64,000 nt of DNA. Source: Eledone cirrhosa. Its lineage: Eukaryota. Shown here piece by piece: positions 7,321-32,250 of the stretch. The stretch lies in contig OZ024740.1 of assembly GCA_964016885.1 (NCBI GenBank), positions 2,790,001 through 2,854,000 of the forward strand, in the 5' to 3' direction. How positions within the stretch are numbered: the stretch's first letter is position 1; every line of letters begins with the position of its first letter. The notes beneath the pieces were generated by a model, which did not search any database, had not been told where the DNA came from, and saw only the letters and a list, made by a program, of their open reading frames with translations. The position numbers were made by a program, and so were the translations under genes.

Positions 7321-7460
7321 GTGACCAAGAAATACCGGGATGGCGGCCGGCGGGGAATAGCCGTGTCTCTAGGGGAGAACGACCCCTCTAGTCTTGGTTG
7401 ACACTCGTTCTAGAAGTGGTAACACGAAATGATTACCCCTTGGCGGATAAGGATAAAACG
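7321..7460 (+). promoter_or_regulatory. Predicted pseudoknotted RNA module just upstream of the family-B AUG (second copy 13185-13324)
   Basis: Helix 7322-7330/7392-7400; hairpin 7369-7391 whose loop GAACGA pairs with TCGTTC 7405-7410; two further hairpins follow. Function is inferred only. Confidence 0.6.
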
Positions 7461-7476
7461 CGACAAAATAAAGTAA

Positions 7477-10164
7477 ATGTCTAATGATAAAATCTCATAC
7501 CGGATCGGCCGTCACCCGGGTAAAAAAGGGCCGCGTCCCTCAGAGAGAAACCAGACTGGGGTCCAAAAATCGGCTAATGGTTCAAACCTTCCCATCACTT
7601 CGGAGCTGGAGACCTCCCATAACCGGAATACTCCTACTGTTGGCCCTCCATGCTCACCACCAAGAAATCCAAAGAAAAAGAGAGAAAAATGGTCAAGGGA
7701 AGATAATAAAGAAGTCCTTGAGGCTTTCTACACTGCCATGTACTACCCATCAAATACATCGAATACAGAACAGACATACATCAACTGGAAAAAGAAACAT
7801 CCCGAAAACAGAGGCTATATTGACAGTAACAAACTAGCCAATATACGAAGAAATATTGTAAGAAAAAAGTTACTAACTGATATAGAAATTGATCAGATCA
7901 AGCTATTAGCACAAAGTCAGCGAAGGGAAAATGAAACATGTGTCAGTGAAAACGAGGTAAACTGTAACACTTCGAATCCCAGGGTTGGGGCGGAATCACT
8001 GGCAACAGAACAAATTAAAGAAAGGATCGAAAAAGTGGAGGGAGTGCATGCTCAGGATGAAACTCCAAATGAAAATAATGAGATCGTAAATAATAAAGAA
8101 ATGAATGAGAATGAACTTGCCAACTTGAAGGATGAAATTATGATCGAATGGATGAAAATGAAAGAATCTGACATGGGGCAACGAGAGACCCTCCCTAAGA
8201 TCCAGAACTCCAAACAGAACCAAAAGATAATACACAAGACTAACATAATTCTCAAAAACATTATCATCACAAACAAACTAAACATTACTGATTTAAATCA
8301 TCTCTATTATGCATCGGCTAAAGTCACCACTCACTTATGTGGAGTGAAGACGAAAAAACAAAGGAATTCCCACAAGAAATCTACTTGGCAAGAGAACATC
8401 AATCGCCAAATAAACCTTCTCCGATCTGACATAGAAATTTTAACAAACTATAAAGTAGGTGAACATGTTAAACAAACTAAACTTAGAAAATTGAAAAAAA
8501 AGTACAGTATAAAATCAACATGTGACATAGACATGCTGATAGAAATAATCAAGCAAAAAGTGTCGGCCAAAGCTGCTCGTATAAGGCGCTTTGAAAAACG
8601 ATCTAGATTCTATAAGGACAATAATATGTTCAAAAACAACCAAGGAAGATTGTCATAATAGACACAAAAATCTATCGATTGCTTGGATAGATTATAAAAA
8701 AGCATTCGATAGTTTGCCACACAGTTGGATTGAAAAATGTTTAGAGATTTTCAAAATATCCCCCGTTGTCAGGAGGTTTTTGTCATTCAGTATGAAGACA
8801 TGGAAAACGACACTCCTTTTGAATAGTGAAACAAAATCACTGGAAGCTGGAGAAGTTAATATTAATTGTGGAATTTTTCAGGGTGACTCTTTATCACCGC
8901 TTTTATTCTGCATCGCACTTATACCATTAAGTAAAATGCTCAATGAAACAAAACATGGATATAAAGTCTATGACAAAACCATTAATCACTTGTTCTACAT
9001 GGATGACCTGAAACTATTTGCAAAAAATGATGAACAATTGCAAGGGCTATTATCCACTGTGAGGCAGTTCAGTGATGACATTAAAATGGAGTTTGGACTA
9101 GATAAATGCGCCAAAGCAACGTTCACCAGAGGAAAGCTGCTGAAAAGTTCAGACATTAATCTTGATCGGGGGAACGTGATAAGAGAACTTGATCAAGAAA
9201 AAACTTACAAATATCTAGGTGTTTGTGAAGGAGACGGAATCAAGCACTCGACAATGAGGGAAAGGATAAGGAAGGAATGTTACCGCAGAGTAAGAGCAAT
9301 CTTAAGAACGGAATTGAATGCAAGGAATAGGATCGATGCCATAAACACGCTTGCCATACCAGTAAAGAAAGAACTGTTACAGAAACTGGCTAAGAAATGA
9401 CAAGAAAAGCCTCTGTATGGAAAATACCCAGAGCGAGCTAACAATCCTGATGTTGACAAAACTTTAACCCATCAGTGGTTGGCATCCTCTGGACTGAAAT
9501 CGGAGACTGAAGGACTGATTATATCGGCACAAGATCAGTGTCTGCCAACAAAAAATTACCAAGCCAACATAATAAAAAAAATGGATGCAGCCCATTATGC
9601 CGTGTATGCAAAAAACAACCAGAGACCATTGACCATATAATTTCAATGTGCAGTCCTATAGCTCCAACCGAATACCTAAACAGGCATGACAGAGCTGCAC
9701 AATAAATACATTGGATAATGCGTAAGCATTTTGATCTGCCCCATCAAAAGAATTGGTGGGAGCATCAACCACCTCCCATACTTGAAAAAGATCACATCTC
9801 AATCTTGTGGAACTTTAGCATCGAAACAGACCGAAATATAGATGCAAACAGACCTGATATAATATTGAAAGACTTTCAAAAGAGGGTATGCCTGCTAATT
9901 GATATGTCTGTTCCAATAGACAAGAATGTATCTATAAAAACATTTGAAAAATTGAGCAAGTATAAGGACCTGGAGATAGAAATTGGAAAAATGTGGAAAT
10001 TGAGAACTAAAACAATACCAGTGGTTGTAGGCTCTCTGGGAATGATACCTAAGGGGTCTAATGATTACTTATCGCAAATCCCAGGAAACCCGCGTATAGG
10101 AGAAATACAAAAGATAGTACTAATGGGAACTGCCCATATACTAAGGAAGATTCTGTCAATATAA
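7477..10164 (+). pseudogene. Family B RT-RLE ORF, internally deleted and frameshifted
   Basis: ORF pieces 7477-8658, 8591-9400 (WIDYKKAFD, HLFYMDD) and 9718-10164 (RPDII..DMSVP). Confidence 0.9.
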
Positions 10165-10355
10165 GTACATCACAAGTCTAAATACTAAAGATGCATGTGT
10201 GAATATGTATGTTCTTTCTTGAAGATGGCGGACCTTGTTGTCTCTTGAGGTCACTGGTTGTGACTTGGTGATAACTCGTATGAACATAAAGCAAGATAAA
10301 TGCAACTGTAATAATAATAATAATAATAATAATAATAATAATAATAATAATAATA

Positions 10356-11186
10356 AAAAATCCCTTCATAGTACCTTCTTTGAGAAAACTGAATTTAGAG
10401 ATCCACAGACATGGAACTGGTTGAAAAGAGAAGACCTTAAAAAGGCTACAGAAGGAATGTTAATGGCTGCGCAGGAGCAAGCTCTCAAAACGAAGTGGTT
10501 GAAACACCACATTTACAAGGAGGAGGCTAGCCCACTGTGCAGGATCTGTGGAGAGAGAGAGGAGACTGTGGCTCACATTGTATCCGAGTGTAAACACCTA
10601 GCCCAGACTCACTATAAGGGCTGGAGACATGATGTGATGGGCAGGGTGATCCACTGGCACCTATGCAAAGTAAACAATTTACCACGTTCTGAGAAGTGGT
10701 ATGTGCATAAGCCAGAGGCGGTGATAGAAAACGATCAGGTGAAGGTGCTGTGGGATTTTAGGATACAGACGGACAAGAAACTGGAACACAATAGACCTGA
10801 CCTGGTGGTTGTGGACAAAGAAAAAAGATCGTGCCTGATTGTGGATGTGGCCTGCCCGTTCGACACGAGAGTGCAAGAGAAGGAGAGGGAGAAAATTAAC
10901 CGATACCAGGACTTAAAGTGGGAGGTAAAAAGGATTTGGAACTGCCATGAAGTCAAAGTGATCCCGATTGTCATAGGCGCACTGGGGACTATCTCCAAAA
11001 GTTTCCAGGGATGGTTAAAGAAAATCGGCCCCTTCACGCTTTTTGGAACGCTTCAAAAGGCATGCGTGCCTTGGAACAGCAAGAACCCTCCGATACGTCC
11101 TGAATATCTGAGGCTGCAGGTAGTGGCTTGATATTCATTCCAACGGACTTTCCAGTTAACTAACATCAATGACTGAGATTCAAGGA
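10356..11186 (+). mobile_element. 5'-truncated family A copy
   Basis: Matches the A1 3' ~830 bp (CCHC + RLE + 3' UTR); flanked by (AAT)n. Confidence 0.93.
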
Positions 11187-31181: not shown

Positions 31182-31610
31182 TGTTGAACAAAAAGGTGAC
31201 GTGGTTGCCTAAACACTGTACGGCGTAATTCGGGCTGTTTGTTTGTTTACAAACAAACAAACCGAGCATTATAATAAATGTTCGGTAAACCGATACGTGC
31301 ATATATATATATATATATATATGTGTATGTATGTATATATATACATACTACTGTACGTCTGTATACATATATGTATGTACGTATACATACATACTTACAT
31401 TTAAGTAAGTGCCGTACTAAGAGTGAGAAATGAAATTTCGTTTCATTCTATTCCATTTACATATATATTGATATATATATAAATATTTATATTTATTTTT
31501 TTTATTTTAACATATATTTATTTCTAAGATTTCACCGTAGAGATAACATCTATTTATACATACATGGCAGAGAGTGAATATGGGACACAGAAAACATTTC
31601 TCATCTAAAT

Positions 31611-31757
31611 CCCAACACATGGCAGCAGACGCACAACGACAAAGAGAGAAGAGGGAAAACCCAACACATGGCAGCAGACGCACAACGACAAAGAGAGAAG
31701 AGGGAAAACCCAACACATGGCAGCAGACGCACAACGACAAAGAGAGGTGAGGGAAAA
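31611..31757 (+). repeat. 49-bp tandem repeat x3
   Basis: Unit CCCAACACATGGCAGCAGACGCACAACGACAAAGAGAGAAGAGGGAAAA. Confidence 0.9.
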
Positions 31758-31839
31758 TCAATGAAACAATAATCGCTCTACAACATTCCAACAAATTTGG
31801 GTCACTCTTGAGTGCTATTGGTAACGTGTAACCCAATAC

Positions 31840-32250
31840 AACCTGTCACATGGTCGGGTCGTCGGCAACCCCACCAAGTTTACTTGGTGACGAGGCTGAC
31901 TTTGGACACCCTGCAGGACAAAAAACAAAACCTGACAAAGGGCGGAAGAACTCATAAGAGTCAACGGCCATCCAAAAGTGTGTAAATATGTATATACACA
32001 TGTACCGTGTGGTTAAACCACTGGGAGTGAAGGACCCCTAGCCTTTGTCGGGGCATTCTTCTAGAAGGCAACTCAGGAAACTGGGATAACTCTGATATAA
32101 AACTTACGGCCCAGTAGTTACCGATGATGTTGGTCTTTTCTTCTTTTCGGGTTATAGCTACTGTCACTCAGAGAGTGGGATTGGCTCAGTGCACAGTCTT
32201 TCCTCACTTTAAAAAATATCTTCACGCACAGGCATTGCACGATAGAATTA
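31840..32250 (+). mobile_element. ORF-less, structured SINE-like element resembling an RTE 5' UTR
   Basis: GC-richer island with GGCGGAAGAACTC and AACTCTGATATAAAAC motifs recalled from RTE-type 5' UTRs, a long-range helix 31931-31941/32042-32052, and an AT-rich end. Confidence 0.55.

Follow-up and report, generated by a model that had tools for sequence, protein, structure and literature searches.

We analysed a 64,000-nt window of Eledone cirrhosa DNA (assembly GCA_964016885.1, contig OZ024740.1, positions 2,790,001 to 2,854,000 of the forward strand), located in a 3.0-Gb genome, in which two copies (B1 and B2) of a long interspersed element (LINE) and one non-coding element (C) carry the same ~70-nt module in their 5′ untranslated regions (UTRs). 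The module is predicted to form a covarying pseudoknot. The 5′ leader of B1 (6094..7476, forward strand) begins after a (TAA)n run and contains 15 ATGs, and the open reading frame (ORF) starts at 7477, with a first open stretch that extends to 8658 (forward strand); the whole element encodes a reverse transcriptase (RT), a CCHC motif and a restriction-like endonuclease (RLE). B2 (12188..17124, forward strand) is flanked by (TAA)n runs and has 12 ATGs in its leader, an AUG at 13341 and a premature stop at codon 8. Element C (31799..32310, forward strand) is a ~510-nt, high-copy, non-coding element that comes from an RTE retrotransposon's 5′ UTR and resembles a short interspersed element (SINE); its 5′ end is sharp and its tail reads (ATGT)n/(AT)n.

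B is a high-copy LINE with 2,136 first-look candidates in the genome. It has a single ORF, in which a domain search matched RVT_1 for the RT; its CCHC and RHD..RPD..D..K motifs we take, from motif definitions, to be the CCHC knuckle and the RLE. In a protein search with B, a frame of at least 1,216 aa was open in all 38 matches scored. TAA runs at its junctions indicate that B inserted into (TAA)n, and (TAA)n repeats are the reported target of Dong (PMC7998251; here and below, statements from cited papers rest on parts of those papers). By domain content and (TAA)n insertion, B fits a Dong/R4-type LINE; no named R4/Dong reference appeared among the 120 B homologs listed. The first ~500 nt of the B1 leader are common to family A, the sister Dong-type family, and the sequence in the slot before the AUG differs between the two families. 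The original prediction had described a leader rich in upstream ORFs (uORFs) with the module ending close to the AUG. Both points held, given the ATG counts above and the AUG at 7477, which lies 17 nt after the ATAAAAC that ends the module and matches the start of a full-length homolog. The module is internal to the 5′ UTR, >1.1 kb from the 5′ end in B and 224 nt from it in C.

A 20-nt pattern search for the motif in animal DNA within public metagenome and metagenome-assembled genome (MAG) contigs gave 120 loci (8 of 64 parts scanned) plus 26 loci. From 117 units, 16 were kept at <90% similarity and two were added, so that 18 units, none from the present genome, were aligned. A covariance model built from these outside units (R1; Ceph-SINE copies included, E-values rough) ranked B1, B2 and C as its top three matches in the window, at 7369-7440 and 13233-13304 (27.4 bits, E 1.1e-6) and at 32021-32107 in C (15.8 bits, E 0.0076). 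The fourth-ranked of the eight matches had an E-value of 3.7. Every string quoted in the original prediction was found at its position, and its claim of one motif common to B and C goes beyond chance in this ranking. Family A gave no R1 match in the window search.

Outside this genome, the motif was found upstream of RTE ORFs in five loci (L143, L159, L160, L193 and L194), often as 2–4 tandem units of ~71 nt, and inside a tRNA-headed SINE in public contigs. In L267, L285 and other loci, it comes after the two strings that Kojima quotes as Ceph-domain markers. The motif lies near a Dong-like RT in L285, where we rejected it as the RT element's own because it is part of a SINE that inserted separately and left a target duplication. 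R1 matched none of the three Dong-like RT loci taken from other datasets (L287, L288 and L290), although these barely reach the 5′ UTR, and the N-terminus of B found no match in these records. Viral contigs contained neither a match to the 20-nt pattern nor a Dong relative.

The motif sequences agree with alignments in the consulted part of the supplement of Kojima 2018 (PMC5786205). That paper reports a conserved RTE 5′-UTR domain that occurs in RTE, Ingi-3_AC, R4-1_ADi and SINEs, is located mid-UTR, is occasionally duplicated and is also present in bipartite non-autonomous RTEs. By sequence comparison, the module is this conserved ~70-nt 5′-UTR domain of RTE retrotransposons, carried here by a Dong/R4-type LINE and an RTE-derived SINE. 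The B module differs as a diverged member, with a rearranged 3′ half and a position 17 nt before the AUG. Sharing across LINE clades is therefore not new, because Kojima already reports the domain in SINEs as well as in LINEs of the RTE, Ingi and R4 groups. The parts of that paper drawn on here speculate that the domain binds a transcription regulator and contain no RNA structure. A search of Rfam 15, in which a match would have removed the novelty of the module, gave weak or microsatellite-driven matches only and none on the module. No description of its fold was found in the literature searched, most subscription papers lying outside that scope. Ribozymes have reportedly been predicted in RTE and R4 5′ ends by Ruminski et al. 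2011, which could bear on the novelty of the fold. The sequence domain and its cross-clade spread are known, then, and the covarying pseudoknot appears to be undescribed in the sources searched.

The predicted fold starts with a 4-bp stem, S1 (consensus GGGY/RCTC; GGGG/CCCC in B), that closes a 7-nt loop. This loop pairs with a strand 18–22 nt downstream as a 7-bp pseudoknot helix, S2, and a 3-bp hairpin lies between S1 and the S2 partner strand. S2 is followed by one A, then by a 4-bp purine-loop hairpin and finally by a GA..CAAACC tail. All of the following coordinates are on the forward strand. The B1 pseudoknot core spans 7372..7411, within the R1 match and the covarying region, and consists of S1 (GGGG 7372-7375 / CCCC 7383-7386), S2 (AGAACGA 7376-7382 / TCGTTCT 7405-7411) and the enclosed hairpin (GTC 7391-7393 / GAC 7400-7402). 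The original prediction gave the loop/partner pairing as 6 bp; the pseudoknot is real and the helix has 7 bp. The core of B2 (13236..13275) is identical. The 3′ part of the B1 module (7412..7459) has two possible hairpins followed by ATAAAAC and has diverged from the purine-loop hairpin and tail of the RTE consensus; in the R1 alignment, the purine-loop hairpin is broken in register. In C, the core spans 32023..32062, with GGG 32023-32025 / CCC 32035-32037 as S1, six of seven S2 pairs (TGAAGGA 32028-32034 / TTCTTCT 32056-32062) and a small hairpin (GCC 32041-32043 / GGC 32052-32054). Its 3′ part (32063..32103) contains the purine-loop hairpin with an inserted GAAA hairpin and then a GA-TATAAAAC tail, with a 3-nt deletion in this copy.

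Pairing and covariation were scored over the 18 aligned units, with 92.6% of cells paired against 24–43% for slid-partner controls. Changes on both sides were present in 9 of 18 pairs (five of seven in S2, two of four in S1, and one of three and one of four in the two hairpins), and none of 500 shuffles matched the totals of pairing and covariation. S2 alone was 93.7% paired, with 23 compensatory cells compared with 6.4 in shuffles; its count of double-change pairs was matched by 44 of 500 shuffles and the other four measures by none. The small hairpin was 98% paired, and RNAalifold, run without structure input, predicted both S2 and this hairpin. Of the S2 pairs, the inner five were free under the rule for picking units, which did restrict the outer two and the small hairpin. 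As independent support, a reading by eye of the consulted part of Kojima's supplement gave 7/7 S2 pairs in 18 named Repbase families despite their different sequences (e.g., AviRTE_BRh, RTE-1_DR, RTE-13_SP, RTE-1_NV, Ingi-3_AC and SepiaSINE), with one mismatch each (6/7) in RTE-5_PSi and AviRTE_TiGu; R4-1_ADi, which appears only in the main text and figure, lies outside this comparison.

Two subfamilies of B are separated by one compensatory pair in S2. The changes 7378 A>G and 7409 T>C are the two sides of this pair, and it was in public contigs that they were first noticed, without having been looked for. Searching for the 7409 variant by pattern gave 260 matches. Young B copies have A7378/T7409 in all 45 cases with letters there, and an older subfamily has G/C in 28 of the 30 copies fetched and A/C in the other two. 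Between 7310 and 7620, only 7482 and 7522 otherwise separate young from old B (7447 segregates within the old group). We calculate a probability of ~1% that, of three other changes within ~310 nt, one falls on the partner; this is a single event. The module was present in 19 of 20 ORF-intact B copies fetched, and the core 7372-7411 is unchanged in 18 of these 19, the exception having GGGG replaced by the consensus-type GGGT.

From this covariation we take the element to act as a folded RNA. Several observations count against, or limit, the overall explanation that we give below. The 18 units are related and come from few source datasets, and the 20-nt pattern fixed the 3′ hairpin in most of them. 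The autonomous RTE and a second SINE of this genome (E, below) keep only 4–5 of seven S2 pairs. The B region folds no better than its own shuffles (z +0.9, in a model that leaves pseudoknots out), and its 3′ half departs from the consensus, so that the purine loop proposed to contact a host factor is not kept in register in B.

The fold that we describe differs from the one first proposed, although a cis-acting structured RNA shared by an RLE-type LINE (Dong/R4) and the RTE lineage, which has an apurinic-like endonuclease (APE), is now supported by far more covariation than before. The earlier fold included a long-range helix, its P1. In B1, the 5′ strand of this helix (7322..7330, forward strand) could pair with 7392-7400, giving 9 bp with two G.U pairs that 15% of shuffles of the upstream 150 nt also reach (p 0.15). 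The C version is stronger (11 bp, p<=0.005), with 31931-31941 complementary to 32042-32052. Both copies form this helix in their centroid folds, but none of the 18 outside units reaches p<0.05, and the helix excludes the conserved 3-bp hairpin at the same place. The earlier P1 is thus not a conserved helix and may be a lineage-specific alternative. The stretch 31931..31953 (forward strand) in C offers a further alternative pairing, where GGAAGAA 31944-31950, within a GGG..CTC stem, is a second possible partner of 32056-32062.

Other details of the original prediction were not confirmed. The TAGAAG that it matched between B and C is, in C, a 3-nt deletion variant (four of 15 printed rows have TAGAAG and 10 of 15 read TAGGAGAAGG), and the spacing given as 25 nt in both was not reproduced, as we count 19 nt in B and 20 nt in C from the start of the P1 3′ strand to TAGAAG. 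The B1/B2 difference at 7343, cited for an inner helix, is a private mutation, with A in one of 38 distinct B sequences. In 18 of 19 ORF-intact copies, 7430 T>A weakens the inner pairs of the GAAA hairpin of B. We also rejected an extra helix between CCGTG before S1 and bases after ATAAAAC, given an A at 7363 in all 19 ORF-intact module-bearing B copies, and a third pseudoknot in which the small loop would pair with the tail, since it did no better than shuffled partners (p 0.91).

With regard to C, the genome contains 5,261 candidates. In 29 other copies, chosen as the best full-length matches, all 5′ starts fall within 31797-31801 and most copies end in (ATGT)n. Over 178 nt, the head of C shares 81% identity with the 5′ UTR of L121, an autonomous RTE in this genome with an APE start, RT region and DUF6451. 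The C tail is unlike the L121 3′ end, and no partner LINE for it was found. The RTE-like label given to C was therefore right, and its description as unrelated fails with respect to coding LINEs. [quoted passage not shown] On these comparisons, C is an RTE-derived SINE, linked to RTE by homology. The first ~130 nt of C (31799-31925), E and the autonomous RTE (L121:1079-1215) make up a head of their own that looks structured and has a sharp 5′ end. Its first bases can pair with a strand ~100 nt downstream; it matched neither Rfam nor the descriptor for hepatitis delta virus (HDV)-like ribozymes. Further downstream in C, 32190-32236 resembles by eye another RTE 5′-UTR segment that Kojima found in IdioSINE2.

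Our leading reading, which we hold tentatively and somewhat short of probable, is that the module binds the host ribosome or an initiation factor and helps to start translation behind a long, AUG-rich leader. This is our best guess because the B module lies 17 nt before the true AUG and behind 14–15 upstream AUGs in full-length copies; in every case with an ORF, the module is upstream of a single ORF. HDV-like folds in LINE 5′ UTRs, which otherwise act as ribozymes, have a reported second, IRES-like role (internal ribosome entry site; review PMC6765202), and Twister T-variants of the RTE Perere-3 in Schistosoma are likewise structured RTE 5′-UTR RNAs tied to ORF translation (PMC8501958). The latter differ in lying at the 5′ terminus and cleaving, and no twister match fell on the module. 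A role in translation initiation, as originally proposed, is something we still infer from sequence.

Under the ribosome-binding reading, S1 and S2 would stack as an H-type pseudoknot with the 3-bp hairpin inserted in its long loop. Viral pseudoknot IRESs (hepatitis C virus-like and dicistrovirus intergenic region) and exoribonuclease-resistant RNAs (xrRNAs) likewise have a compact pseudoknot, into which a hairpin is inserted, upstream of a coding region. Compared with these, the module is much smaller, has a variable distance to the start codon, occurs in tandem copies and has no Rfam match. The pseudoknot frame may present near-invariant unpaired purines (the AAGGAAAA loop, an A before each small helix and the CAAACC tail) to a partner. 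A conserved host partner is suggested both by these purines and by the fact that LINEs whose proteins are unrelated (APE-type RTE and Ingi; RLE-type R4/Dong) use one and the same element. Once bound in a coding LINE, the 40S subunit would reach the AUG further downstream by scanning or docking. In SINEs, retention of the module would place the SINE RNA next to ribosomes that are making RT, in line with the Alu-like model of SINE RNA at ribosomes. B likely gained the module, in the slot before its AUG, by recombination with abundant RTE/SINE RNAs or copies of its own genome.

Several findings need to be set against ribosome recruitment. In five RTE loci, the first in-frame methionine lies 59–189 nt after the last unit that our script found (later units were sometimes missed, so some distances are overstated); it lies at 282 nt in a sixth locus and is absent in a seventh. 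Such variable distances (17 nt in B vs. 59 to >100 nt in RTE loci) are not the fixed spacing of a docking IRES. Units also occur in 2–4 tandem copies, non-coding Ceph-SINEs keep S2 with compensatory changes, and the leader of family A is equally ATG-rich (14 and 12 ATGs) without an R1 match. Variable AUG distance, tandem copies and retention in SINEs together count against a simple IRES. The weak S2 of the autonomous RTE and SINE E and the rearranged 3′ half of B, given above, likewise speak against recruitment. Stop-start coupling through a short uORF that ends just before the AUG in B1 was rejected, the uORF ATG being lost in 18 of 19 intact copies. A bolder version of the ribosome reading, which we consider rather unlikely in full, would make the module a new ~70-nt class of eukaryotic ribosome-recruiting pseudoknot, possibly a catalytically dead descendant of the HDV fold. 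In that version it is conserved from cnidarians to birds in RTEs, was swapped into Ingi and R4/Dong and became stacked in tandem, and SINEs would retain it as a means of parking on ribosomes and catching RT as it is made.

Retention in non-coding elements could also reflect a signal for ribonucleoprotein (RNP) assembly or integration bound by the element-encoded RT. The module is kept in SINEs, bipartite non-autonomous RTEs and tRNA-headed SINE copies, and the R2 protein binds a 5′-UTR pseudoknot (review PMC6765202). Nevertheless, we regard this as unlikely, given that one element serves both the RLE-type protein of B and the APE-type proteins of RTE and Ingi, that the module is weakened in high-copy SINE E, and that 5′-truncated copies without it integrate (L136, L404), although truncation follows RNP assembly. 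Tandem copies and tolerance of any AUG distance would also suit a fold that resists exoribonucleases and protects the ORF downstream of it against 5′-3′ decay in LINE/SINE RNA that is uncapped or decapped, as would a compact pseudoknot upstream of the ORF; tandem xrRNAs are found in flaviviruses, and such a block would be useful to SINEs too. Self-cleavage of Bombyx mori Dong at its 5′ end (PMC3774820) adds to this case. We think a decay block distinctly unlikely, since no known xrRNA family matched in Rfam, nothing in this analysis indicates uncapped transcripts, and the conserved unpaired purines downstream of the knot would be left unexplained. It is quite improbable that the domain works as DNA, as in Kojima's suggestion of a transcription-regulator site (PMC5786205), or is a decayed passenger in these two elements. 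The degenerate RTE/E version and the lack of the module in family A would agree with such a role, but the compensatory changes seen between families and within B require base pairing, for which a site in double-stranded DNA has no need.

A self-cleaving ribozyme, either a divergent HDV-like fold or a new class, is highly improbable, despite likeness to the HDV-like ribozymes of R2, R4/Dong, RTE and L1Tc. Helix order and location in LINE 5′ UTRs are shared, the GCC/GGC 3-bp hairpin recurs, and the 7-bp S2, with a purine in its first pair, agrees with the 6–7 bp of HDV-like P1 (PMC3774820). GG follows the helix in 13 of 18 units, C-N-R-A precedes the tail in 13 of 18, and one unit type has a CC-containing loop; HDV-like ribozymes have been reported in RTE and R4/Dong (PMC5786205, PMC3774820), among them an active one at the 5′ end of B. 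mori Dong (PMC3774820). However, a P2 of at least 5 bp is present in 0/18 units, as is YC at loop positions 2–3, hence no P1.1 with GG (by the L3 consensus). P3 abuts P1 in 0/18 (2–3 nt are inserted), which is not independent because the picking pattern required at least 1 nt there; overall, 1–4 extra nt separate hairpin and helix. The module further differs in the extra stem S1 and the conserved purine loop. C-N-R-A is not in register in B, and its candidate catalytic C also pairs within the 4-bp hairpin. The module is internal rather than terminal: 28 of 29 B copies extend at least 148 nt upstream of the helix (none starts at 7376, one at 7369), outside elements begin ~30 nt or more upstream of the first helix, and SINE tRNA heads remain attached 5′ of the module. 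An HDV descriptor run over the leaders of A, B, C, E, RTE and L193 matched only L193, at a level also reached in 3 of 20 shuffles (a weak result, without a positive control). Since the HDV tests fail and the module does not mark element 5′ ends, we conclude that it is probably not an HDV ribozyme; descent from an HDV-type fold is possible.

These readings bear on the translation of single-ORF LINEs that have long leaders, rich in AUGs and often uncapped, and on why pieces of the RTE 5′ UTR recur in SINE bodies. Kojima 2018 left the function of the domain to speculation, and the predicted fold with its natural compensatory pairs makes function directly testable. If the module recruits ribosomes, it would rank with the smallest initiation elements of cells and could serve as a portable part in retrotransposon-based gene insertion or in expression from delivered RNA. 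A decay block or RT binding would instead make it the cis element so far missing from a major LINE clade that is horizontally transferred.

Some further observations concern related elements in the public contigs. L193:1790-2150 and related loci are RTEs of other animals whose first unit carries an ~80-nt insertion and a CC-containing loop, and these first units resemble HDV more than the tandem units after them do. The 5′ ends of these RTEs start with GGTGTC and a hairpin, like the TGTC start of the RTE in the present genome. Contigs C3-C19 of a bacterial MAG (G002) hold many tandem units ~6.5 kb apart, each with an intact RT frame of ~1158 aa, beside animal SINE copies, and are probably host DNA with a tandem retroelement array.

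Within the window, 1148-24209 is an array of full-length, truncated and rearranged copies of the two Dong-type families, nested in each other's (TAA)n tails, and B1 has an internal deletion relative to B2. Before its AUG, family A (2400-2590, 18095-18280) has a GTGGGAT-GGCGG-ATCCAC hairpin with a downstream CGCC that could pair with the loop, and GGGATGGCGG from this region recurs in B at 7337-7346. This hairpin (fold z -1.2) may be one more pre-AUG module, exchangeable with the other. Elsewhere, the reverse strand carries Helitron fragments with PIF1 helicase and Helitron_like_N matches (27782-31208) and more RT-encoding LINEs (50120-54882 and 60161-64000), in one of which the RT is followed by a PHD finger. 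The stretch from 51750 to 55640 contains inverted repeats, the longest of 275 nt.

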